From positions 1 to 35,820 of IMG/VR virus record IMGVR_UViG_3300037439_000017: 35,820 bases of DNA; one strand, 5' to 3'. A program made the position numbers and the translations under genes. This stretch comes from a virus. Its lineage: Duplodnaviria > Caudoviricetes. The notes beneath the pieces were generated by a model. That model was not told where the DNA came from and searched no databases. It saw nothing but the letters and a program-made list of their open reading frames with translations. Shown here one piece after another: positions 1,551-25,195 of this stretch. The stretch's first letter is position 1. Each line of letters starts with the position of its first letter.

Positions 1551-1753
1551 CGGATCGTCTTCGCCAGTTCCAGCGCCTGCTTCGCGGTGAAGCCCTCTGC
1601 GAGGTAGTGCTCGTAAGCGGCGCGCTGCAGCTTCGCGACCAGCCCGTGGTGCTCGATCATGGCCGGCAGCTTGCGGCGGAACTCGTCGACGGCGCCGGCG
1701 AGTTCGTCGACGTCCGTCCTGACTAGGCTCACCACTCGCTTGTCGTCAGCCAT
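1547..1753 (-). CDS. Hypothetical phage protein
   Basis: 68 aa, coupled to neighbours; C-terminal GFTAKQALEL motif common in small phage proteins. Confidence 0.7.
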   Translation of the reverse strand: MADDKRVVSLVRTDVDELAGAVDEFRRKLPAMIEHHGLVAKLQRAAYEHYLAEGFTAKQALELAKTIR

Positions 1754-1949
1754 TGCAGAACTTGTGCAACACCTTGCGAACTGGCGTGAGGATCGGCTCC
1801 ATGAAGTCGCGAAGCGCCATGTTCAACTGCAGGCCCGCCCAGTAAAACGTGTTGCGGAAAGCGGCGAAGATTTCATCGTCCTCCGCGTATGGCGGCACCA
1901 AGCCAGCCGCCTTGATTTGCGCTATCGACCTCAAGTCCAGTGCATTCAT
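1746..1949 (-). CDS. Hypothetical protein
   Basis: 67 aa, ATGA overlap with the GT2 stop, GGAGG RBS. Confidence 0.6.
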   Translation of the reverse strand: MNALDLRSIAQIKAAGLVPPYAEDDEIFAAFRNTFYWAGLQLNMALRDFMEPILTPVRKVLHKFCNG

Positions 1950-2647
1950 ACCGCCCTCCGGAAACCCACATACGCCGCGGCGCGTTCAGCGCCCAGCCAT
2001 TCTGCCAGAAGCGCGCCGTCGGGGTCTGGATCGCCGAACGTGTCCCGATGCCCCACCCCGATGCCGCCGCGGCCAGGCAATCCCTTGATGCCGACCACGT
2101 TGGCGGTCTCCAGCAGCGCCTTGCTGCCCGTGAAGCCGCGCCAGAGGTCCATGTCGATCCGGCGGCTACCGGCGGCACAGACCTCGCGCAGCATCGCGAG
2201 CGAGCGCCCACGGACCGCTGTGCTGGCCAGCGAGGCATGGAACTGCCCCGGGATGGTCTTGAAGCGCCGAGTCGCGACGTTGTAGTACCGCGCCACCCGC
2301 TCGCCGACCAGCTCCGCGCCTGCAAGGGCATCGACCACCGTGGCGAGGTGCTCGGGCAGGTAGGCGTCGTCATCCTCAAGGATCACCACCGTCGCGCTGT
2401 CCGGTATGTCCGACAAACCCATTGCCATACACGCGGCTTGCGTGTTCATGTTCGGTTGCCAGCGCCAGTGCGGCCTTATCACCGTCAGATGGATGCCGAC
2501 ACGAACCTCAGGCACCTCGGTCATCGGGTCGCAGTCGTCGACCACGACCCACCGCAGGTCGCCTTGATACGTCTGCGCATTCAGGTAACCGGCGAGGAGG
2601 GCGATGCCTTCCGGGCGGCCGCCAGTCGGGGTCAGCAGGTACAGCAC
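1946..2647 (-). CDS. GT-A fold (GT2-like) glycosyltransferase
   Basis: LLTPTGGRP start, LNAQTY, WVVVDD and VVILEDDDAYLP (DxD) motifs. Confidence 0.8.
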   Translation of the reverse strand: MLYLLTPTGGRPEGIALLAGYLNAQTYQGDLRWVVVDDCDPMTEVPEVRVGIHLTVIRPHWRWQPNMNTQAACMAMGLSDIPDSATVVILEDDDAYLPEHLATVVDALAGAELVGERVARYYNVATRRFKTIPGQFHASLASTAVRGRSLAMLREVCAAGSRRIDMDLWRGFTGSKALLETANVVGIKGLPGRGGIGVGHRDTFGDPDPDGALLAEWLGAERAAAYVGFRRAV

Positions 2648-3432
2648 GCGGCCTCCAGCAGTTGCGGCACGATCTCGCGCACGTCGTGCAATCCTGCCGC
2701 TTGCTCGCGCCAGCCGCCCTTGCCGATCACGCCTCGGACAGCAGCGGCCACCAGTTCAGGCGTTGGCACCACGCCGCCGCGACCGCTGTAGTTCCGGATC
2801 ATGGATAGTGCGCTCACATCGAGCAGCGGCCCTTGGTACGCGCTGCGGTGGTCGCAGATCACGAACGGCACTCCACACGCCATCGCCTCCACAGCGGCCC
2901 TGCCTGACGCCAAGACGCACGCCGCGTTCCGCAGCACATCGCGTGCCTGCTGCGGCGAGACGCCGCGCAGATGGCGATACGGAAGACCAAGCGTGGCAGC
3001 TACGTCCGACAACCAGGCAAGGCCGCCGCGGTAGCTGTATCGCACCAGTCCTGCCGAGCCGTCGCCGCCCGGGGACCAGAACTGAAGGTCGATCGGCTGG
3101 CGAATGATCGGGCCGTCACCACCCCAGTATTCGCGGACGCCCTCACTGGTGAAGACGACCGGCATATCCTCCGGCGGGCACTCCGGATCGATGATGCCGT
3201 GCGAGACGGCCATCACCTGATCGCAGGACGCCACCGCCGCTTCTGTGAGGCGGTGATTGGCGAGGATTCCCAGGTCGAACCGTCCGGCAGGCAGCGACCA
3301 CTCCGGGCACCACAGCACCGCGTCATGACCGATGCGCCGTAGTTCGGCCGCAACCGTCGCCACCCACGACTGCACCCCGCCGATCTCGCGCGACGCGCCA
3401 GGCACGTACTTCGCCGCCAGCAGGATCCTCAC
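2632..3432 (-). CDS. GT-B fold (GT4-like) glycosyltransferase
   Basis: GTG at 3432 (GTGA overlap); RILL..GGVQSWVATVAAELRRIGHD and GRAAVEAMACGVP motifs. Confidence 0.8.
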   Translation of the reverse strand: MRILLAAKYVPGASREIGGVQSWVATVAAELRRIGHDAVLWCPEWSLPAGRFDLGILANHRLTEAAVASCDQVMAVSHGIIDPECPPEDMPVVFTSEGVREYWGGDGPIIRQPIDLQFWSPGGDGSAGLVRYSYRGGLAWLSDVAATLGLPYRHLRGVSPQQARDVLRNAACVLASGRAAVEAMACGVPFVICDHRSAYQGPLLDVSALSMIRNYSGRGGVVPTPELVAAAVRGVIGKGGWREQAAGLHDVREIVPQLLEAACCTC

Positions 3433-4025
3433 CGCAGCGCCCTCGCGAGCGGCGCGCGCGGGAAGCACGTCAGCGCCGTCCCTTCGGTGGCGTTGACCAC
3501 GCTGACCCCCTCGGCCCGCAGGTCAAACGCCATGGCCTGGAACTCCGTGCGCCACACCGAGATATGCGACTTCGGCGCGCTCAGCATCGGCCTTCCCTTG
3601 ATGTCGTGATGCTCGCCATGCCAGTGACCGCCGTCTTGCCGGTGCATGTCGAATCCCAGAAGGACAATGCGCTTCGCACCGAAGTGCCAAGCCAGATTGA
3701 CCGCCTGGAAGCCGCTGTTGCCGCCGGTGTGCACGTAACCACGTTCCCGGCAGAGTCCTTTGCCTTCACGCTTGCGCACCAGATGCAGGCGGAACTTCAT
3801 GGCCGCCGCTTCGTCGCGCGTCCACCGCTCGCCCTGAAAGCCGCAGACCTCGTCGCCGTAGCGATCCCACCAGCCGCTGTCGCCGGCATACATCGCCGCC
3901 GCCCATGGTGCGAGCTGCCACGTGTTGTTCACGGTCATCACGTTCCACGACCGGAGCTTGCGAATTTCGGACACATCGACCCGCGCCATGCTCGGGCCGC
4001 TCGCGCAGATGATCCACTTGCTCAC
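3429..4025 (-). CDS. DUF115/Maf-like glycosyltransferase-like protein, paralog 1
   Basis: CASGPS, VNNTWQLAPWA..YAGD..WW, GGNSGFQAVNLA..GAKRIVLLGFDM, HWH; clearly paralogous to 766-1344. Confidence 0.65.
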   Translation of the reverse strand: MSKWIICASGPSMARVDVSEIRKLRSWNVMTVNNTWQLAPWAAAMYAGDSGWWDRYGDEVCGFQGERWTRDEAAAMKFRLHLVRKREGKGLCRERGYVHTGGNSGFQAVNLAWHFGAKRIVLLGFDMHRQDGGHWHGEHHDIKGRPMLSAPKSHISVWRTEFQAMAFDLRAEGVSVVNATEGTALTCFPRAPLARALR

Positions 4026-8749: not shown

Positions 8750-9952
8750 TTACTTACCTCCCGTCGCGGCGGCCTTCGGGCCGGCAGCGAGTGCGTCGAC
8801 GCTGGCCTGGTAGCCGTTGTCGTTGATGGGCGTCACCGAGGCGCTGCGGAGCACCCGGTTGACCGGATCCTTCTTGGCGTCCTCGACGAGGATGTCGAAG
8901 CGGGCGTCGACGTACGCCTGCGGCTTGTCCTTGATGGCCGCATCGCCGAGCTTCGCGACCACGGCAGCCTTGCGGATGTCGTCGTCGGTCTTGCCGGAGT
9001 AGTCGGCGTCGTGGACGGCCTTCGCCGTGGCGATCAGGTCGGCGCGCGCTTTGACACGCTGGTCGAGCTGCTCGTCGCTGAGCACCTTGCCCTTCAGGCT
9101 GTCGATCTCGGCATCCTTCTTGGCGATGGTGGCGTCCCGGTCCGCAAGCGCGGTCTGGTGCTTCGTTGCCGCATCGGTCAGGGCGGTGGAGCCGTCCTGT
9201 ACCTGCTGCTGCAGCTTGGCGATGGCCTGGGCTCCCGCGTCGGTGGTTTCGACGGACAGCCCATCGACCATGACGGTCTTGGTCTTGATGGTGTCGCTCA
9301 TGGTGAGTTTCCTCGGTGGTGGGTTGTCGTCGCCGATACGAAGTTGATCCCCACCGCGCGCCCGGTCGACTAGCGCGAGGTGTTGTGCTGAAACTGGTGT
9401 TGCGCCCCAGTGACTCTTGCTGTCACCGATGCGAAGTTCTGATCCTCCGCGGGCTGCGGCGACGATGGCGACGTGGTTTTGCTTCAGGTCGGTCATGTAG
9501 GCGTCGTACGGCTCCCCCGCAGGGGAAACGCCGTCGCTGAAGACCAGCTCGGCGCTGTATCCGGCAGAAAGCTCACGGGTGCCGCGGTTGACCTCGTCGA
9601 TGGCCTTCTGGTCGCGCAACATCATCGGAACGCGGACGAATTCACCGTCGCGCATGACTTCATCGCCGACCTCGCCGCGCGCCAGGTCCTTCCAATTGGA
9701 CGCAGTCACGCCTGCCTTCGGGTGTCCGACCGTGATCGGAACGCCAGCGTACGAAGCCATCGCGTCCTGTCGGAATACCTCGTCCGCAGGTCGGAATACC
9801 CTGACGACGTGCATTTCCGGATGACCGATTTCGTCACCGAGGTAAAGCTGGACGTTCTCGGCGCGCGCGACCCGTGCGTTGAACACCGCATAGCCCTCAG
9901 CGGTCTTTCGGATGGACGCCTTGTCCACCGCGACCGTATCGATGAATTGCAT
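8750..9952 (-). CDS. Prohead protease-scaffold (DUF2213 family)
   Basis: ATG at 9952 (GAGG RBS); PITVGHP, ELSAGY, NHVAIV..ARGG..LRIGD motifs; coiled-coil C-terminus. Confidence 0.88.
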   Translation of the reverse strand: MQFIDTVAVDKASIRKTAEGYAVFNARVARAENVQLYLGDEIGHPEMHVVRVFRPADEVFRQDAMASYAGVPITVGHPKAGVTASNWKDLARGEVGDEVMRDGEFVRVPMMLRDQKAIDEVNRGTRELSAGYSAELVFSDGVSPAGEPYDAYMTDLKQNHVAIVAAARGGSELRIGDSKSHWGATPVSAQHLALVDRARGGDQLRIGDDNPPPRKLTMSDTIKTKTVMVDGLSVETTDAGAQAIAKLQQQVQDGSTALTDAATKHQTALADRDATIAKKDAEIDSLKGKVLSDEQLDQRVKARADLIATAKAVHDADYSGKTDDDIRKAAVVAKLGDAAIKDKPQAYVDARFDILVEDAKKDPVNRVLRSASVTPINDNGYQASVDALAAGPKAAATGGK

Positions 9953-9977
9953 GTTCTCTGCCTCTTGGTGGATCGAC

Positions 9978-10012
9978 AAAAGAAAAGGGCACCCGGTTGG
10001 GCGCCCCTTCTT
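9978..10012 (-). terminator. Intrinsic terminator closing the RAMP/array cassette
   Basis: Minus strand AAGGGGCGCCC-AACC-GGGTGCCCTTT followed by TCTTTT; G-U pairs form only on the minus strand. Confidence 0.7.
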
Positions 10013-10023
10013 GTCGTTTTCGA

Positions 10024-10081
10024 CCCTTGCTAAGCCATACCCGGCCATACCAAGCACAGCCCTGCTGCGCCCTACCGTGCC
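10024..10081 (-). repeat. GGY-NN pentamer array 2 (11 units plus GGG), candidate guide RNA
   Basis: Minus strand: GGC AC GGT AG GGC GC AGC AG GGC TG TGC TT GGT AT GGC CG GGT AT GGC TT AGC AA GGG. Confidence 0.9.
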
Positions 10082-10099
10082 GACTGGCGCTTACCGCAC

Positions 10100-10127
10100 C
10101 GCAATGGATGGCACGCCACCCATTACG
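10100..10127 (-). other. Long hairpin separating the two pentamer arrays
   Basis: Minus strand CGTAATGGGTGGC-GT-GCCATCCATTGCG; two G-U pairs that would be A-C mismatches on the plus strand. Confidence 0.8.
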
Positions 10128-10137
10128 CTGTTGTCAG

Positions 10138-10190
10138 CCCTTGCTACGTCGCGCCGCGCCAAGCCGTGCCTAGCCCCGCTCGGCTGTGCC
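10138..10190 (-). repeat. GGY-NN pentamer array 1 (10 units plus GGG), candidate guide RNA
   Basis: Minus strand: GGC AC AGC CG AGC GG GGC TA GGC AC GGC TT GGC GC GGC GC GAC GT AGC AA GGG. Confidence 0.88.
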
Positions 10191-10325
10191 GTGGTTCAAG
10201 CAACTGCGAAGCCGTTGGACATCCGCCGACCAGAGAAGGCAAACCAGCAGCAGGACCATGCAAGCGATGACGCCGGCTAGCTGAAGCAATACCGGTTTGC
10301 TAGTCCTGTCGATGAAGGACTTCAC
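10170..10325 (-). CDS. Possible 51-aa single-TM peptide (not in ORF track)
   Basis: GTG with AAGGA RBS; MKSFIDRTSKPVLLQLAGVIACMVLLLVCLLWSADVQRLRSCLNHGTAERG; stop codon lies inside array 1. Confidence 0.4.
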   Translation of the reverse strand: MKSFIDRTSKPVLLQLAGVIACMVLLLVCLLWSADVQRLRSCLNHGTAERG

Positions 10326-10328
10326 TGG

Positions 10329-10832
10329 TCAATCCTTCGCGGATTCATTCGTCTCCGGCTTCGCCAGAAACCGTTTGCGCTTTGCGCGCTTCGCGCTTTC
10401 CTCAAGGAACGAGAGCCGCGCCAGAGCATCGGCGTTCTTCCTCGCTTCCTCGTGGCTCAACGCACCGCGATCGATGAAGCTCAGCCGTCGCCCCATCTTC
10501 CGAAGCTCCGACTTCACACGCTTCATGCCGTGTTCCATCGCGTATTCCGTTTGCTTATCCGGCTCCACGATCATGTAGCCCTGCCCCGGTACGGCCTTCA
10601 GGCACATGTTGCGTTCTTCTAGCAGGTGGTTTGCCAACGCATCAACCTGCGCAAGCAGGGACAACCGCCATTCCTCGTACTCGTCAACCGTGATTCTGCC
10701 GGTCGGCTTCGGCAAAAGGAGCGCCGCTTGTAGCTCATCGTGCGGCACCACGTCGCCGTAGGTGTACCGACCTGCGAACAGTTCGGCGGCAGCGTTGCGC
10801 CATGCCGGCAGCAGATGGACCGCGCCGCTCAC
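10329..10832 (-). CDS. RAMP-associated accessory protein, winged-helix-like N-terminus plus helical basic C-terminus
   Basis: GTGA-coupled to the RAMP gene; GDVVPHDEL..., LKAVPGQGYMIV wing-like motif; basic tail. Confidence 0.7.
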   Translation of the reverse strand: MSGAVHLLPAWRNAAAELFAGRYTYGDVVPHDELQAALLLPKPTGRITVDEYEEWRLSLLAQVDALANHLLEERNMCLKAVPGQGYMIVEPDKQTEYAMEHGMKRVKSELRKMGRRLSFIDRGALSHEEARKNADALARLSFLEESAKRAKRKRFLAKPETNESAKD

Positions 10833-11398
10833 GACAGAACCTCAACGCCGAACCGGCCGAAACGCGGGCGGTAGGTGCCGATGCCTATGCGCCGGCCGGC
10901 TTCTTCCACTACCCGCACAAGGTCGCCCTTATCGATCACGTCCTCCATGAACTCGATATCGAACTGCGTTGCCCACGACAGGAAGATCGGCCTGCAACGC
11001 ATGATCTTCTTGCCGCCGACGTTTACCCCGCGAACATCGGCGTGCTTGTTGCCCTGCCACAGCTTTTCCTTCTTACGCGGGCCGTCATATTCCAGCTTGT
11101 GCTTGTCGTCCACGACCCGCACGGCTTGCTTGATGGTCTTGCCTAGCCGGTGAATCTTGCCGGCCTCTGCAATGCAGCCCTCGATGTTCAGCGCCGGGAT
11201 GTAGGGGCCGATCTGATCGTCGAAGTACATGCCGGCCGACCACTCCGACTCCATCAGCCAGAGGTAATCGTCCTCGGACTTCTTCTTCTTGCCGCTGACC
11301 GCCTTGTGAGCCTTGGTCAGTTCGTGCAAGGGGTTCGCCAGGGTCTCCGCCTGCATCAACAGGGGAGCGTTTCCGGTAATGCGGAACGTGATGTTCAT
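10829..11398 (-). CDS. Stand-alone Cas7/Csm3-like RAMP superfamily protein
   Basis: RAMP hallmarks: N-terminal strand ITFRITGNAPLLM, PYIPALNIEGCI (cf. PxIPGSSxKG), RPIF..W, C-terminal Gly-rich loop GRRIGIGTYRPRFGRFGV; GAGG RBS. Confidence 0.8.
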   Translation of the reverse strand: MNITFRITGNAPLLMQAETLANPLHELTKAHKAVSGKKKKSEDDYLWLMESEWSAGMYFDDQIGPYIPALNIEGCIAEAGKIHRLGKTIKQAVRVVDDKHKLEYDGPRKKEKLWQGNKHADVRGVNVGGKKIMRCRPIFLSWATQFDIEFMEDVIDKGDLVRVVEEAGRRIGIGTYRPRFGRFGVEVLS

Positions 11399-11454
11399 CG
11401 GTAAGCCTCAGTTCGTGGCCTGCTGTTTGGCGGTATGCCTAGCGCCACGCACCG

Positions 11455-11483
11455 AATATATTACCGTTATCGGATGTTTTCAA
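11455..11483 (-). promoter_or_regulatory. Sigma70-type promoter for the RAMP operon
   Basis: Minus strand TTGAAA-17 bp-TATATT in an AT-rich patch about 55 nt upstream of the RAMP ATG. Confidence 0.7.
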
Positions 11484-11548
11484 TCCTTTTAAGGGCTGTA
11501 CTATCATGATGTCGGGCTGGAATAACCCTCATCAGCGAGAATGCGACA

Positions 11549-11770
11549 ATGTCCACCATGCTCAGCGGCTCCAAACTACGCGCCATCCGATCCCTGAAGG
11601 GGATGACCCAAGCTCAGCTTGCGGAGGCCTCAGGGGTCTCCCCCACCGCCATCACCGAGTACGAAAAAGGCAAGCGCGACCTACGCGCCGACACCATTCG
11701 GAAGCTCTGCGAAGCGCTCGGCGTGCAGGTCAAGTACATCGTGGACGGGACCGAGATCACCGGCCCTTAG
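11549..11770 (+). CDS. XRE-family HTH regulator, divergent from the RAMP operon
   Basis: LRAIRSLKGMTQAQLAEASGVSPTAITEYEKGKRD..L..ALGV. Confidence 0.9.
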   Translation: MSTMLSGSKLRAIRSLKGMTQAQLAEASGVSPTAITEYEKGKRDLRADTIRKLCEALGVQVKYIVDGTEITGP

Positions 11771-11954
11771 CCTTGCGCTTCGCCTTCCGCTTCTTCCTGA
11801 GTTTCGCAGCGTAGTCATCCATTTCCTTGGTCGCTGTCGCCATGCCCTTTAGGGCTGCATTCAGCTTGGTCTGCGCGGATAGCGCATCCAGCTTCCGTGT
11901 CCCCTCTGCCAGCTGGCTCGAATCCACGCGATAGCCGAGGTCGTTGATATTCAT
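11757..11954 (-). CDS. Small protein resembling a tape-measure N-terminus with a basic tail (possible remnant)
   Basis: MNINDLGYRVDSSQLAEGTRKLDAL..; GGAG RBS. Confidence 0.5.
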   Translation of the reverse strand: MNINDLGYRVDSSQLAEGTRKLDALSAQTKLNAALKGMATATKEMDDYAAKLRKKRKAKRKAKGR

Positions 11955-11967
11955 TTAGTCGCTTCTC

Positions 11968-13413
11968 CTAGACCTTGCCCGTGAATGGGGCAATATCACT
12001 CTCCGTGAACGTGTGGATCGGTGCTGAATCTTTGGCCGCGATCCGCTCTGCCTCGATCTCTTCGGGCGTCTTGCCGGTCGTCAGCGAGGCCACATCATCT
12101 TCGGTCGTGTCCTCACCATCTGGATTCGCGGCCTTCCACTCATCCATCGACTGCTCGAGGCCAGGCGCGACGCCCGCTTCAGTGAGCATCGTCACCGCGA
12201 CCTCGCTCATCACGTCGTCTGGGATCAGGCCGGTCTCGCCGATCGACTTGATCGTCTCGGCGGTGATCTTGCCGATGTCGGCGCGTTCCTTATCCGTGCT
12301 CTGCCAGAGGCTGGCCCAGTTGTAGAACAGTTCCGGCGGGCGCGTGCCCAGTGCAGATCGGATCAGGCACTCGTCGAAGATGGCGAGCGCCGGCGTCATC
12401 GATAGCTGCTGCATCGCGCTGATGCGGTCGTAGTAGTTGCGGATGTCGGCATCGCCGGTCGCATTCAGACCTGCAGGGGCTTGCCCGAGCAGGCGCGTGA
12501 CCGGGATGTCGGCCGCACCGGACACCAGCTGCATGAAGGCCAGCATGATGTTCGTCAGCTCGCCGAAGGTCGCGGTCTTCTGCTCGTACTCTTCCTCGGA
12601 GTCGAGGATCAGGCAGCCGTTGATGCCCTTGGCCGTCGCCGCCAGGGTCAACCGCTCGATGACCTGCTGCTCGTACGCCGTACCGCCGCCCTGCAGCTTC
12701 TCCATCAGCTTCGGGATTTTGATCACGTCGATCTTCGCTTCGAACACCAGCGAGGCGATGTTCGCCGCGGTGCCGTCGGCTTGCTTGATCGTCTGCAGGA
12801 TCGCGAGCAGGACCGGGTCGCCCCAGCCGCGTTCGGCTCCGGTGGCCCGCTCCGGATCAGGATGCAACGCGCCCTGGAAGATGATCAGCCGCGAGGGATG
12901 GATGTCGACTTGGCCGGTCTGGCTGGTGATCGTGTATTCCTTCGGCTTGCCGTAGGCCTCAGATTCCGGGTTGGTCTCGGTCTCGCCGGCCTGCAGCACG
13001 CGGCGCGTCAGCACGTTGAGGTGCTTGATGCCGCCTTTCGCGATCGACTCCGGGTTCAGCGGCTTCGTCGGATCGGAGTCACCGGTACCGATGTAGATCG
13101 CAGCACCACCGAACAAGCGCGCCTTGGTCAGCGCTTCGAGCACCTTGGCCTGCAGCCCCAGCCGTGTCTCCTCGGCCTCGACATCGCTGATCTCGTCGCC
13201 ATCGGCCTGCCAGTTCCGCCACTTGCGGCAGGCATCGAGCGCCGGGATGTCGATGATCTTCCGCGGCAGCCACGCACCACGGTAGGCGTTGAGCAGCTGA
13301 TCCTCGGGCAGGCACGGCACGGCGTAGTAGCTGCTGGCCGCCTTGTCGCGAGGCGTGTTGAGGTTGGCGACCAGGTTGCGCAACCCGTCGCCGATCTTGT
13401 GGACAACGCCCAT
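11968..13413 (-). CDS. Portal protein (DUF1073 family)
   Basis: Follows TerL; W..RKIIDIPA.D..R.W, ARLFGGA, IHPSRL, SGAADIP.TRLLG.AP.GLNATG..D..NYYD motifs. Confidence 0.9.
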   Translation of the reverse strand: MGVVHKIGDGLRNLVANLNTPRDKAASSYYAVPCLPEDQLLNAYRGAWLPRKIIDIPALDACRKWRNWQADGDEISDVEAEETRLGLQAKVLEALTKARLFGGAAIYIGTGDSDPTKPLNPESIAKGGIKHLNVLTRRVLQAGETETNPESEAYGKPKEYTITSQTGQVDIHPSRLIIFQGALHPDPERATGAERGWGDPVLLAILQTIKQADGTAANIASLVFEAKIDVIKIPKLMEKLQGGGTAYEQQVIERLTLAATAKGINGCLILDSEEEYEQKTATFGELTNIMLAFMQLVSGAADIPVTRLLGQAPAGLNATGDADIRNYYDRISAMQQLSMTPALAIFDECLIRSALGTRPPELFYNWASLWQSTDKERADIGKITAETIKSIGETGLIPDDVMSEVAVTMLTEAGVAPGLEQSMDEWKAANPDGEDTTEDDVASLTTGKTPEEIEAERIAAKDSAPIHTFTESDIAPFTGKV

Positions 13414-20118: not shown

Positions 20119-20489
20119 CACGCGGCCCGCCTGGTGTTCTTCGCGATCAGCGCGTGCTGTTGCTGCATCAGAGATTCGTCATCGCCGAACACGGCATGGA
20201 ACGGCACGCTGCCTTCGGATAGCGCGGGCCCGAGCAACCGGCGATGGGTGCCGTGATTCCAGCCAGCAACGATCAGGCGGCCGGAGTGATGCCATTTGCA
20301 TAACCCGACGGTGTGCAGGTGGCCGCGACGAATACCGCCCGACAGTAGGTGATGCGCGTCCACAACCGAACCATCCGGATCGTGTTCGTAGCCGCGCGCG
20401 ATGCAGCACAGGCAGCCGAGTCGCTTCACGGTGGTGACCCACTCGCGTTCGGCTTTCGTCATGTTCCCCGTGGAACGACCCACCCTCAC
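20118..20489 (-). CDS. Ref-like recombination enhancement nuclease (HNH-type)
   Basis: LGCLCC, AHH..GG.R.GH..T..LC.WHH, F...FG.D..L motifs. Confidence 0.75.
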   Translation of the reverse strand: MRVGRSTGNMTKAEREWVTTVKRLGCLCCIARGYEHDPDGSVVDAHHLLSGGIRRGHLHTVGLCKWHHSGRLIVAGWNHGTHRRLLGPALSEGSVPFHAVFGDDESLMQQQHALIAKNTRRAA

Positions 20490-21007
20490 AGCAAGCCTCC
20501 GGGATGCAGCGACCTCTTCGCTTGAACATAGGCCGCATGGGCTTCTTCAGCGGTGTCATATGTTCCGAGCGCCATCTTCTTTCGGCCGGCACAAATGAAA
20601 GCCCGGAAGCGCCGCCCTTCGGCAACGACCCCAAGTAGGCCTACACGGCTGCGAGAAGTGGCGCTTCGAAGGTTCTGCGCGTTGCACGCGTTGTCCGCAA
20701 GGCGAAGGTTCTTAATTCGGTTGTCAGCTCGCAACCCGTTCTTGTGGTCGACCTCGACCCCAGCGTCGATTGCGCCATGTACGAACATCCACGCTAGCCG
20801 GTGAGCCAGATATACGCGGGCTTCAAGTCGGATAGCTGTATATCCATCTTGATTTGGCGAGCCTGCCTCGCTCCCGGCGACAGCCCTGCCGTTACGTGTT
20901 TCTCGCCAAAAGAATTTTCCTGTTTCCGCATCGTACCGAAGCATCCGCTTTGCAAATTCTTGCAATGACTCGCCCGCAAGCGGCTTGCTTGCCTTATATG
21001 GGTTCAC
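20486..21007 (-). CDS. HNH homing endonuclease with AP2-like domain
   Basis: GTG at 21007; YD.ETG.F.W, AHRLAW, VDHKNG.R.DNRI.NLR, LG.YDTAEEA..AY; slightly lower GC. Confidence 0.88.
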   Translation of the reverse strand: MNPYKASKPLAGESLQEFAKRMLRYDAETGKFFWRETRNGRAVAGSEAGSPNQDGYTAIRLEARVYLAHRLAWMFVHGAIDAGVEVDHKNGLRADNRIKNLRLADNACNAQNLRSATSRSRVGLLGVVAEGRRFRAFICAGRKKMALGTYDTAEEAHAAYVQAKRSLHPGGLL

Positions 21008-21555
21008 GCCGCACCATCCGGCTTCTGGATAATCAACTCCACTTCCTCGCGGCTCGCAGCGCTCAGCCCGCCGAACACTTCCCGGCGCAGCCACCCGATC
21101 CAGCCACCCTCGCCGTTGCCGCCGTCCCACAGTTCGTTGAATCGACCCTCGTCCACGTCTGAGAAGTTCAGCGATTCCGCTTCGGTGCGCGTCAGCTTGC
21201 CCACGCCGGGAATGTCGTAGTCGACTGTCTCGCAACCGATGCCCGACAGCTCCTGCAGCTTCTTCAGCGCGTCGTGCATGCCGAGTCCGGAGAACTGCTC
21301 CACGTTGTCTGCGAGCCAGCCTGCGAGGACGTGAGCCTTCCGGTAGAACATCGGATTCCGGTCCTGCCGCAGCGTCGCGCGCAGCATCTTGCCGGTGTTG
21401 AACTTGCGCTCGCGCATCGAGCGGCGATCGATGGGGTGATCCGGCACAAGCGCGCCGACGATTTCTCCGGTCTCGGGAATCATCACCTTCATCACGGTCA
21501 CGCGGATGTCGCGTGCGCGGAGCTTGGCGCGCGCCTTCTGCAGTGCGGTGGTCAC
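21004..21555 (-). CDS. DUF1367/NinB-like protein
   Basis: RNPMFYRK and SLNF..VDE..F..L motifs; nin-region position. Confidence 0.55.
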   Translation of the reverse strand: MTTALQKARAKLRARDIRVTVMKVMIPETGEIVGALVPDHPIDRRSMRERKFNTGKMLRATLRQDRNPMFYRKAHVLAGWLADNVEQFSGLGMHDALKKLQELSGIGCETVDYDIPGVGKLTRTEAESLNFSDVDEGRFNELWDGGNGEGGWIGWLRREVFGGLSAASREEVELIIQKPDGAA

Positions 21556-23030
21556 CGATCACGCCCTGCAGCGCGGTCGCGTCCGCTTGGCGCTGGATCG
21601 TCGAAGCCGTCCTCGCCCGCTGCGCTCTCGGGCTTCTTCGTCTTGTAGTTCGGCCGCGGCCCGAAGTAGTCGGCGAAGTAGCTGCATTCGAGATGGTGGC
21701 GCAGGTATGCGGTTCCGGTTGGGCCGTTGCGCTGCTTGCCGATGATGAACTCGGCAACGCCAGGCGCACCGCTCAGGTCCTTCGTGTAGTAGTCGTCTCG
21801 GTACACGAACGCCACGATGTCCGCGTCCTGCTCAATTGCACCGGACTCGCGCAGATCCGCCATCGTCGGGCGCTTGTCGGTGCGGCCTTCCAGAGACCGG
21901 TTCAACTGCGACAGTCCGATCACCGGGCAGTGCAGCGTCTTTGCCATCAACTTGCAGCGCCGGCTGATCTTCGTCATTTCGTCGTAGCGCTTTTCGTCGC
22001 GCCGGCCGTCGCCGCTGATCAGCTGCAGGTAATCGATGACGATCAGGCCCAAGCCCCCGGGCACCTTTGCGTGCATGCGCGATGCGCGTGCTTCGATGGC
22101 GTCAATCGTCAGGCTCGCGGTGTCGTCGATCGCGATCGACAACGCTCGCGAGTCCTTGTACGCGCCGTTGATCGCCGACCAGTCTTCCGGAGTGAGTGCT
22201 GCCTTCTGCCGCATCCGTGCGTTGTCGACGCGCGCGCGCCTGGACAGGAGGCGAACGCCAAGCTGCTTCTTGCTCATCTCCAGCGAGAACACGGCGACGT
22301 TCCGCTCGTGGTGGCTGGCCGCGTGGTCTGCGAACTCCAGCCCCGTCACTGTCTTGCCCATGCCTGGGCGGCCGGCGATCACCATGAAGTCGGTGTCCTC
22401 CAGACCCGGCAGTTTCGCGCGGACGTTCTCCCATGGCGGCGTCAGGCCGACCTCGATCGTTCCGGCATCGCGGGCGACGATCTCGTCCCACGCTTCGGTC
22501 ATCGCGCCGCGGAGCATGCACAAGCCCCCTGCCCGCGCGCCGCGCATGGTCAGGCTCGCCATCTTCGCCGCGCTGTGCGCGACGATCTGGTCGGCCTCAC
22601 GCCCTTCTGGCAGGAATCCGTCGTTCACAATCTCGGTGCCGACGGTGATCAGGCGCCGGAGCGTCGACTTGTCCGCCACGATCTGCGCGTAGTCGCGCAC
22701 GTTCGCCGGCCGCGGCGGTGCCTTCCATAGTTCGATCAGGTAGGCGCCGCCTTCGACTTGGTCCGCCTTGCCGTTGGACTCGAACCACTCGCCCACCGTC
22801 AACGCGTCGTACGCCTTGCCCTTTTCCTTGAGATCGAGGATGGCCGCGTAGATCAGCTGGTGATCGCGCCGGTAGAAGTCCTCGACTTGGATCAAGTCCG
22901 CAACATCGTCGATCGATTCCGGCGTCAGCATCAGCGTGCCCAGTACCGCCTGCTCAGCATCGATCGCCTGCGGCGGGATGCGCAGCTGCTCGATGCGGTC
23001 CTCGTGGCGCGGGGAACCGTCGGCGCTCAT
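21552..23030 (-). CDS. dnaB: Replicative DNA helicase, DnaB family
   Basis: PPQAIDAEQAVLG, AGRPGMGKT, FSLEM, VIDYLQL, LSQLNR, DLRESGAIEQDAD, KQRNGPTG. Confidence 0.96.
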   Translation of the reverse strand: MSADGSPRHEDRIEQLRIPPQAIDAEQAVLGTLMLTPESIDDVADLIQVEDFYRRDHQLIYAAILDLKEKGKAYDALTVGEWFESNGKADQVEGGAYLIELWKAPPRPANVRDYAQIVADKSTLRRLITVGTEIVNDGFLPEGREADQIVAHSAAKMASLTMRGARAGGLCMLRGAMTEAWDEIVARDAGTIEVGLTPPWENVRAKLPGLEDTDFMVIAGRPGMGKTVTGLEFADHAASHHERNVAVFSLEMSKKQLGVRLLSRRARVDNARMRQKAALTPEDWSAINGAYKDSRALSIAIDDTASLTIDAIEARASRMHAKVPGGLGLIVIDYLQLISGDGRRDEKRYDEMTKISRRCKLMAKTLHCPVIGLSQLNRSLEGRTDKRPTMADLRESGAIEQDADIVAFVYRDDYYTKDLSGAPGVAEFIIGKQRNGPTGTAYLRHHLECSYFADYFGPRPNYKTKKPESAAGEDGFDDPAPSGRDRAAGRDR

Positions 23031-23860
23031 GCGGCCTGGTCCTCTTTCGGCGCGCGCTCAGCGTCTCGTTCCCGCTTGAGCTGCACGCCGGCGGTCGTCA
23101 GGTCGCACTGGCCATCGCCCGGCATCCACCACAGGCGGAACCAGTTCCGGCGCACGCAGTTCTCGAACTTCTGCCGCCACCCGCGCTTGCCGGCCTGCGT
23201 GGTCTTCCCGTCGCGGTACTGCCGGACGAACTCGCGCCACGCCAACTCGAGGAAGTCGGTCGGAATCCCCGCAGTGGCAGCGAAGGCGAAAACAGCGTGT
23301 TCGAGGGGGATCAGCTTCTCGCCGTCCGTGCGACAGGCCTGGACGAAGTCGGCGTAGGTCATCCCCTTGGGCGACTTCGCCCGTTTCGGCTTGCCCTCCA
23401 CTGCTTGCCCCCTGGAAGGGGGTATGGGGGTTTCTTGATCTTGAAGAGAATCAGGAATCAGAGAATCAGGAATCAGAGAATCAGCCGGGCTCGTATCTGC
23501 CTTGGTTGTGTCTTGCACAGTGCTTGCACAGTGCTCGCCCGGTGCAGGTATGGTGCTTTTGGCCTCCTTTACATGCGGATTCTGGTGCTTGCACCATGCA
23601 AGAATCTGGATAAAGGCTTTGCCATCAACGGTGTAGCGAAGAATGAACCCGCCATCGTGCAGCGCCTGTAGTCCTGCACTGACATCGACAGGATCGGCAG
23701 GAAACACCTCCATTCGTATCTTTGTGGGGCGATCTTCGAGGCGTCCATCGCGGTCTGCCATCGTCCACAACCCCACGAACAGCAGCCGATATTCGAAAGC
23801 GAGTTCGACAAGTAGCTCGTTCTTGAAGAACCCCGGCTTGATATTGCGGGCTCGGCTCAT
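23027..23860 (-). CDS. Phage replication initiator (O-like)
   Basis: MSRARNIKPGFF.NE, LF.GLW..AD..GRL N-terminal domain; internal repeats; upstream of dnaB. Confidence 0.8.
   Translation of the reverse strand: MSRARNIKPGFFKNELLVELAFEYRLLFVGLWTMADRDGRLEDRPTKIRMEVFPADPVDVSAGLQALHDGGFILRYTVDGKAFIQILAWCKHQNPHVKEAKSTIPAPGEHCASTVQDTTKADTSPADSLIPDSLIPDSLQDQETPIPPSRGQAVEGKPKRAKSPKGMTYADFVQACRTDGEKLIPLEHAVFAFAATAGIPTDFLELAWREFVRQYRDGKTTQAGKRGWRQKFENCVRRNWFRLWWMPGDGQCDLTTAGVQLKRERDAERAPKEDQAA
23445..23556. repeat. Tandem repeats within the initiator gene (probable ori/iterons)
   Basis: (AGAGAATCAGGAATC)x2.7 at 23445-23484; 11-bp period CTTGCACAGTG CTTGCACAGTG CTCGCCCGGTG CAGGTATGGTG at 23512-23555. 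Confidence 0.65.
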
Positions 23861-24615
23861 TGGTAGCGGCCCTCGATCAGGTCGCTCATGTCGTCTTGCC
23901 AGTTGCGCCAGGAGCGTGCGTCTTTCGCTAGGGCCTTCAGGGTTTCGTCATCGGCGCCAGCCGCCCTCGCCTGCCTGAGCAGGGTGATTGCAATGCCTTC
24001 ATGGACGTAGTTGAGGCGGTTTCGCAGGATGCCCCTGGCGTACCGGAGGCCTGATTCATCGGGCTTGCTGCGGTAGTTGCAGATGCCGCCGAGCTTCGAG
24101 AACGCCAGCGTGGCGCTATCGCGATCAACTACAGCGGCGTACTGATCCTTGGCGATATCCATGCCTTCAAGCACTGCGGTCAGGCCAAACTCCCGAATCA
24201 ACTTTTTGAGGCTGGCCACTGCCGCATCGTTGGTGATCGCCCAGCCTGTGAATGTCTCGGCGAAGTGATCACGCGCCGCATCAAGCTGCAGTTGATCAAT
24301 CGTCTTCAGGCCCTTGCGCCAATCCAGCATCATTTTCAGCTGCTCACGACGCTCTGAGAGGTCCGCCAACTGCTGGCGCTGTTTGGACAGCGTGGCGTTG
24401 TCATCCAGTGGCGTGGCGCCCTTGCCGCTGTTGCAGTCCACGCAAGACGTGATGAGGTTCAGAGGATCGTTGTCGCCTCCGCGACTGACCGGGTCGACGT
24501 GATCAACGTGCAAAACAACGTCAGGGGCCTTGGATCCGCAGTACTGGCACATGAAGCTGTCGCGCTTGAATACCTCGAAGCGGACCTTCTTGCTGATCGC
24601 CTTTCTCTTGGCCAT
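23857..24615 (-). CDS. HNH endonuclease-domain protein
   Basis: ATG at 24615; RFEVFKRD.F.CQYCG, LHVDHV.P...GG.....NL.TSC..CN.GK. Confidence 0.85.
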   Translation of the reverse strand: MAKRKAISKKVRFEVFKRDSFMCQYCGSKAPDVVLHVDHVDPVSRGGDNDPLNLITSCVDCNSGKGATPLDDNATLSKQRQQLADLSERREQLKMMLDWRKGLKTIDQLQLDAARDHFAETFTGWAITNDAAVASLKKLIREFGLTAVLEGMDIAKDQYAAVVDRDSATLAFSKLGGICNYRSKPDESGLRYARGILRNRLNYVHEGIAITLLRQARAAGADDETLKALAKDARSWRNWQDDMSDLIEGRYQ

Positions 24616-24794
24616 TACGCGGCCAGCTCGATCGGCAACTGGGGCGAAGGCTGGCGCTTGGCCTCGTCCCGCGCGACCTGGCGGGCGTGGAGGATCTGGT
24701 ATTCCATGCGCTGCTCGGCGGTCGTCTCGCCGGACAGGCACTCTTCCCGGCAGCGGCGGAAGCGCTCGAGGACGATCTCGTCGCGGCGGCTCAT
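24615..24794 (-). CDS. Hypothetical protein
   Basis: ATG at 24794 (ATGA overlap); 59 aa. Confidence 0.55.
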   Translation of the reverse strand: MSRRDEIVLERFRRCREECLSGETTAEQRMEYQILHARQVARDEAKRQPSPQLPIELAA

Positions 24795-25195
24795 GCTGCG
24801 ACTCCGCGAAACGCTGCGATCAGGACCTGTTTGTCGTGCTCGGCCTGACTTAGCCGCTCGCGCAGTTCCCGGTTCTCCCGCTCGACATCGCTCTCGAACC
24901 GACGCAGGCAGCGCGGGTCGTAGCCCCGCTTGATCAGCCAGTAGACGAGCCACGCCTCGCTGCCGGTGGCGTCCATCATCCGGTCCAAGTGGTCTTCGGA
25001 CGGCCTGGCCGTGCCCTGCTTGACCTTCGCTAAGGTGCTGGCGTCGATCTCGGCTTCGATGGCGACGGTCTTTTCCTGCAAGCCGCTCATCGTGATCATG
25101 GATCCGATCGCCGCGGCTTCGGTCTTCCAGCCCCACTCGCTCTCAGGGACCGGGCGAAGCGGTCGCTTGACCTTCAAAACTAGGGCTGTCCCCAT
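24791..25195 (-). CDS. CII-like transcription regulator
   Basis: HTH SGLQEKTVAIEAEIDASTLAKVKQG plus C-terminal coiled coil; position after cro. Confidence 0.7.
   Translation of the reverse strand: MGTALVLKVKRPLRPVPESEWGWKTEAAAIGSMITMSGLQEKTVAIEAEIDASTLAKVKQGTARPSEDHLDRMMDATGSEAWLVYWLIKRGYDPRCLRRFESDVERENRELRERLSQAEHDKQVLIAAFRGVAA

Follow-up and report, generated by a model that had tools for sequence, protein, structure and literature searches.

The window analyzed here spans an entire virus record (35,820 bases; 64% G+C), the minus strand of which carries the terminase, portal, DUF2213, cement, and major capsid genes. Named close homologues point to Xanthomonadales, and a repressor-like gene suggests a temperate lifestyle for the phage. 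Elsewhere in the window, 2 PHROG 4603 genes, annotated as alpha-2,3-sialyltransferase, lie among the neck and tail genes (766–1422 and 3429–4025, minus strand), 2 HNH endonuclease genes are found in the replication region (20486–21769 and 23857–24741, minus strand), and short tandem repeats within the replication initiator gene (23445–23538) are likely origin iterons. A five-unit GGY run at 25001–25025 was taken as chance.

Between the portal gene (11968–13413, minus strand) and the DUF2213 gene (8750–9952, minus strand) lies a cassette at about 9977–11772, the edges of which were placed where similarity to related cassettes, residing in other gene contexts, stops. The portal–protease slot is variable in length across 76 relatives, from 15 to 2713 bases, and no nucleotide match to window 9380–11960 was found in GenBank phages. 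The left edge of this mobile cassette, where similarity stops at 11766–11772, is formed by a divergent gene for an HTH regulator (11549–11770, plus strand); all other elements are on the minus strand. These include a sigma-70-like promoter recognized by consensus match only (11455–11483), the downstream vipr gene (10829–11398), encoding a 189-aa protein assigned a RAMP fold by profile, pairwise, and model comparisons, and a vap1-like accessory gene (10329–10832; 167 aa) identified by homology to the gene that follows vipr in Escherichia phage SUSP1. Two arrays of GGY/NN units are found beyond vap1: the 9-unit guide of vrRNA1 (10146–10190; AC CG GG TA AC TT GC GC GT) and the 10-unit guide of vrRNA2 (10032–10081), with a possible extra unit, TC, at 10082–10086. 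They are separated by the vrRNA1 tail, a spacer hairpin, and the vrRNA2 leader (10087–10145), a stretch conserved in related cassettes. The vrRNA2 tail, agcAAggg plus a 4-bp hairpin (10013–10031), displays compensatory changes among copies, and the cassette ends with an intrinsic-terminator-like hairpin (9983–10010), the similarity of relatives stopping at 9977–9979. An Rfam search of the region returned a weak terminator-like match alone and no ribozyme, and the cassette yielded no nuclease family match, i.e., it does not qualify as a free-standing homing element. The approximately 130 bases between vap1 and vrRNA1 (10194–10326) contain a 51-codon hydrophobic ORF without a family match and look like an insertion, since vrRNA1 directly follows vap1 in a related phage from sequencing run X2. 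In record 10 of the same run, about 110 extra bases, the size of one guide unit, separate vrRNA1 from vrRNA2.

VIPR, a CRISPR-like gene silencer of phages, was described in 2026; its guides skip a base that is usually at a wobble position, and binding represses transcription on either strand (10.64898/2026.04.26.720920). The structure of SUSP1 Vipr (PDB 36pp) was recovered with an E-value of 5e-60 against a profile of 77 homologues of the window Vipr, and the 2 proteins are 38% identical in pairwise alignment. The predicted structure of the window protein resembles the type III CRISPR RAMPs Csm3/Cmr (TM about 0.5), and this RAMP homologue sits outside a CRISPR context. The vap1 product is 27% identical (E = 1e-17) to that of the gene following vipr in SUSP1, the gene order is likewise vipr then vap1, and the presence of a vap1 homologue directly after vipr identifies the locus as type II VIPR. 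Both arrays carry a tail common to the related clade, 2 of the 4 pairs in the tail hairpin covary among 9 sequences, and the unit counts of 9 and 10 (or 11), several units being degenerate, fall in the published VIPR range of 9–16. Judged by these sequence features, array 2 encodes a guide RNA and belongs to a type II VIPR locus comprising vipr, vap1, and 2 guides in intergenic DNA. Residues invariant in the Vipr family are retained, as are the SUSP1 guide-binding residues K33, K82, R138, and R179, with R39 replaced by K; the G1/G2-reading positions H17, D177, and W178 of SUSP1 are Q, T, and Y in the window protein. In SUSP1, D177A abolished silencing. Arrays of the window's Vipr clade accept A, T, or C in place of the first G. 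Searching IMG/VR for further arrays with guide 2, using a 3-base spacing pattern that doubles as a loose 3-skip control, produced 2 matches, neither of them an array or near vipr.

On the minus strand, positions 10081–10032 read ggcAC ggtAG ggcGC agcAG ggcTG tgcTT ggtAT ggcCG ggtAT ggcTT, followed by agcAA ggg, which agrees with the NN series given in the first-pass annotation (AC AG GC AG TG TT AT CG AT TT). The AA that the annotation appended in brackets belongs to the conserved tail rather than the guide: the corresponding TTn is present in 0 of 69 targets, and the same agcAA ending closes many related arrays. With one base skipped between dinucleotides, the guide corresponds to AA.AT.CG.AT.AA.CA.CT.GC.CT.GT on the coding strand of DUF2213 genes, with which it pairs. 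The annotation had proposed a gapped, codon-phased guide against the conserved prohead-protease motif of related phages, recalling the consensus NIR(I/M)NHLALV, and the pattern matches bear this out. Searching IMG/VR with the 20-base gapped pattern gave 69 exact matches in 46 distinct 42-base contexts, and every one of them falls in frame on the same motif of a DUF2213 homologue (67 NIRINHLALV and 2 KIRINHLALV), whereas no skip, a 2-base skip, and one shuffled NN order, the kinds of control that the annotation had suggested, each gave 0 exact matches. Most of these exactly matching phages are only distantly related to the window phage, whose host they may not share: one reaches 39% across most of the length, and the bulk of the others lie at 27–36%. 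A further 5′ unit, TC at 10083–10082, may belong to guide 2, as judged by the targets: it continues the match in 12 of the 69 exact targets, and of 119 close homologues scanned, 118 yielded the motif, 82 of them with D next to it on the C-terminal side.

The target family corresponds to PHROG 530, head maturation protease, and the predicted structure of the DUF2213 protein folds like T4 gp21 (5JBL; E = 9e-5), the sole entry below 0.001 in the fold comparison. Among the 80 closest IMG/VR homologues of the window's own protease, 51 match the guide at the motif, in frame, at 16 or more of the 20 read bases. Skips of 0, 2, or 3 bases gave 0/80 at this level, and 78 of 100 shuffled guides also gave 0, the largest count being 12. 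The other 29 homologues reach just 12–13/20 there, and vipr is absent from the loci of all 80; therefore, a low score does not require VIPR. Conservation by codon position was left out of account, its figures combining genuine with chance sites. The closest genome-borne Vipr is carried by a Luteimonas MAG, and we also searched 401 genomes from the family of this MAG, the likely host family. They contain 4 sites at 18/20, 2 of which are the motif in prophages with an 80–82% identical capsid protein, and a reversed-pattern control returned 0 sites. The other 2 sites are unrelated sequence, and 18/20 alone is therefore not specific at genome scale.

None of 134 other distinct guides matched the DUF2213 motif in the five frames examined, and 6 of them match at 85% or more elsewhere in 149 DUF2213 loci. 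Guide 1 is matched exactly, over all 18 read bases, in 3 related contigs (L230–L232) of another phage group, each time at the same in-frame site of a terminase large subunit gene, just before the LADE motif, which we take to be the Walker B motif. About one 18-base match would be expected by chance, assuming a collection of about 1e11 bases. Given this expectation and the relatedness of the 3 contigs, it is no more than plausible that guide 1 targets the terminase large subunit gene.

The DUF2213 gene of the window phage, a head maturation protease/scaffold gene, had been described as broken, which is not the case: it is an open frame of 400 codons with a full-length DUF2213 domain (Pfam positions 3–167 of 167, E = 2e-52) and a complete variant motif. 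H77, S129, and H160 are invariant in 56 sequences. The protein contains 2 copies of the motif, an arrangement found in just one other of the 119 homologues, with different spacing. The copy in the working domain is DLKQNHVAIV (9462–9490, minus strand); 31 residues on, a truncated copy begins at His191, within the leftover half target QHLALVD (9366–9397, minus strand), and each agrees with guide 2 at 12 of the 20 read bases. Only this redundant second half-motif is broken; it remains from a recombination event whose join, 9382|9383, falls at the first base of His191. The 11-base plus-strand match at 9369–9384 noted in the first-pass annotation is present, once in the window, but its 11th base lies beyond the join and agrees incidentally. 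The chance expectation given for it, about 0.02 sites, was reproduced with shuffled guides (mean 0.02; 2 of 100 reach a match like that at 9369–9384). With the TC unit included, the own half-site comprises 6 whole units and 13 contiguous read bases. The full guide 2 pattern has 0 matches in the window at up to 3 mismatches, and the best self scores are 14/20 for guide 2 and 13/18 for guide 1, so that neither guide has a self-target at 80% or more within the window, which may be an incomplete genome.

The gene is a chimera. Its 5′ part is 81–85% identical to 6 proteins (P0122–P0127) and at most 67% identical to others, whereas the region from the second motif onward is closest to a different protein, P0128. 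In trees of 26 chosen proteins, the 5′ modules of P0121–P0127 form one clade (support 100/96), nested in a lineage foreign to the 7 corresponding 3′ halves, which are scattered. The same 5′ module is found on at least 3 different 3′ halves, and the joins of all 7 module proteins lie within about 20 codons of the motif, whatever lies upstream. A contig from runs X3 and X4, which represent one soil sample, has 0 differences from the window over 9240–9382 and then continues into an unswapped, intact motif that scores 18/20. Since the identity stops at 9382, the join lies inside the guide footprint, and the replaced half is the one read by the tail-proximal units. Run X3 has almost no cover over the cassette, which carries no weight, and run X1, possibly the window's own source, was left out of the counts. 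The variant-module motif has 0 matches in GTDB genomes and 1 in metagenome contigs. Flanks were visible for just one other module carrier, L233, in which an HNH endonuclease gene (1736–2395, minus strand), and no VIPR, lies directly upstream of the same module; no homologue of this endonuclease was found in the portal–protease slot of the 76 relatives.

Run X2, from another study, contains pieces of a phage with the same chimera, vipr, vap1, HTH gene, and guide register. Between X2 and the window, 9 of 30 scaffold bases of guide 2 changed versus 1 of 20 NN bases (Fisher p = 0.037; one comparison), the single NN change being the last base before the tail, and the flank in the adjacent gene differs at 4 of 776 bases. 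Such a pattern is compatible with a code kept by purifying selection, or with a guide rewritten independently to the same site. An identical NN series with different scaffold triplets, resembling the comparison of the window with X2, is also present in the last guides of L070 (5866–5920) and L073 (5194–5248).

The explanation that we hold with good confidence is that this type II VIPR guide likely silences the head protease of kin, while the intact own gene likely escapes through its swapped 5′ half. According to published work, Vipr coats the RNA with one subunit per repeat, two out of every three bases in the target pair with the NN dinucleotides, and transcription is repressed with no cutting. 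Applied to this locus, binding within the protease gene would also deprive the cement and major capsid genes downstream of transcription, leaving a co-infecting or resident relative unable to make heads. The own half-site would be ignored, as the replaced half is tail-proximal, where assembly begins in structures; in the accessible part of the cryo-EM work, Vipr subunits resolve first at the tail-proximal end, and that text contains no mismatch or seed data (10.64898/2026.04.26.720927). Escape at 12/20 is assumed from the working threshold of 80%. As to how the 2 parts came together, we lean slightly toward a foreign module that arrived for reasons other than this guide: the phage being immune, the guide could be kept. 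The HNH gene of L233, the clustered joins, the low-scoring motifs in VIPR-less relatives, and the other contexts of close Vipr relatives imply that the swap may predate the guide.

A different reading makes the cassette and the resistant module a silence-and-rescue drive, traveling as a block that replaces the resident 5′ half of kin, because only recombinants gaining both could make heads. We regard it as unlikely, although several observations agree with it: the cassette abuts the module, the join lies within the footprint, the block is present in 2 phages, and one module occurs on several 3′ halves. Against this, L233 pairs the module with an HNH endonuclease instead of VIPR, the joins cluster near the motif regardless of upstream content, and close Vipr relatives reside in other contexts with other guides. 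Furthermore, a DUF2213 neighbor was seen at 0 of 80 related VIPR loci in IMG/VR and 0 of 2 genome loci, in the parts visible, and type II VIPR has no known nuclease that would initiate recombination.

Sub-threshold self-matches of other VIPR phages also count in favor of such a drive. Among 133 distinct related type II guides, 13 match their own locus above shuffled-unit nulls (p ≤ 0.02; 2.7 expected), at 62–82% of read bases. Wobble phasing is seen in 11 of these 13 versus 45 of 103 non-significant self-matches, and most of the significant ones are in long frames that, judged by eye, resemble tail genes. In 25 length-selected, nearly complete records (49 guides), 8 of the 385 bins within 12 kb of vipr contain such a self-match, against 1 of 513 farther away. 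These records are related to one another, several of the matches have a motif in common, and structural genes surround the cassettes. Read from sequence in this way, the near-cassette bias suggests, as a lead, that targeting of kin alleles is common among VIPR phages, which bears on the question of guide origin. Individual cases include L075 (7278 and 5290), where a guide matches a neighboring own gene in wobble phase at 18/22 (82%), above the published self-target threshold; L103, L131, L137, L143, and others, with partial matches to their own tail genes and one to the own vipr region; and sister records that match better than self, e.g., 21/22 in G017 against 17/22.

Two further readings fare worse. 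Autoregulation, whereby the guide would bind the own 6-unit half-site and damp the phage's own late head genes, appears very improbable: the half-site has 13 contiguous read bases when the TC unit is counted, and the natural SUSP1 vrRNA4 footprint is 6 units (10.64898/2026.10.15.759431), but units 6–9 mismatch self, match other phages exactly, and are unchanged in X2 while the scaffold drifts, and the matched half is tail-distal, the end opposite to that where subunits resolve first. That the array is a relic or the match mere chance, with no silencing today, is least credible of all: degenerate scaffold triplets (agc, tgc), the inclusion of GGY>AGY substitution among the perturbations tested in SUSP1, and the changed G1-reading residues of Vipr speak for it, but vipr and vap1 are open, the promoter, tails, terminator, and invariant Vipr residues are in place, NN is conserved in X2, the controls are empty, and degenerate scaffolds are common throughout the clade.

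Neither the one-base skip nor the wobble phasing is new, both having been published for VIPR, and the same holds for the argument that a target cannot escape through synonymous mutation, which was made in 10.64898/2026.04.26.720920 and shown for a satellite recombinase in 10.64898/2026.10.15.759431. As in the type II VIPR of SUSP1 and a Pseudomonas fulva prophage, described in these papers and in 10.64898/2026.04.26.720927, the window combines vipr, vap1, and GGY/NN guides with a structured 3′ tail, a one-base skip, a target that lies wobble-phased in a conserved stretch of an essential gene, and the absence of a self-match at 80%. The target differs: near kin's head protease, a homologue of the cassette's neighbor, rather than a satellite recombinase, lysogeny regulator, or vipr. 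Unlike in those systems, the own allele is a chimera joined within the footprint, and the window has a short hairpin tail, a divergent HTH gene, and other G1-reading residues. The accessible VIPR texts describe self-match avoidance for guides aimed at vipr and vrRNAs; they mention neither DUF2213 nor head-protease targets nor swapped alleles that confer resistance, some of which Data S3 or supplementary target tables could list, and “homing” and “recoded” do not occur in the available text of 10.64898/2026.10.15.759431.

The nearest functional parallels lie outside VIPR. In T4 marker exclusion by the homing endonucleases SegF and SegG, as described in PMC12724721, a sequence-specific weapon beside a conserved gene hits rival alleles and the carrier is resistant, and the HNH gene of L233 occupies the same slot as the cassette; by analogy, guide 2 likely excludes close kin much as free-standing homing endonucleases exclude rival alleles. 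Unlike SegF and SegG, the window system is RNA-programmed and, by the published type II data, would silence rather than cut. The synthetic Cleave and Rescue (ClvR) drive likewise couples guided attack on an essential gene with a linked resistant version (10.1101/2019.12.13.876169). Unlike ClvR, the window locus is natural, in a phage, and silencing, with rescue by a swapped domain and not by recoding, so that the likeness is one of analogy and not of membership. Only tentatively, and with doubt prevailing, can this be extended to the proposal that type II VIPR cassettes are RNA-programmed selfish alleles that settle next to an essential virion gene, are aimed at the rival version of this neighbor, and spread with the resistant one. 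If true, sister phages would be subject to a silence-and-rescue drive of natural origin, the cassette would take over the role of a free-standing homing endonuclease in the same slot, and the locus would hold the recombination scar of the drive inside the guide footprint. The locus adds a natural case of a VIPR phage aiming at a gene that it needs itself and, with the target, the immune allele, the join, and the sensitive sister allele all in hand, it makes mismatch tolerance, seed position, and kin exclusion directly testable.
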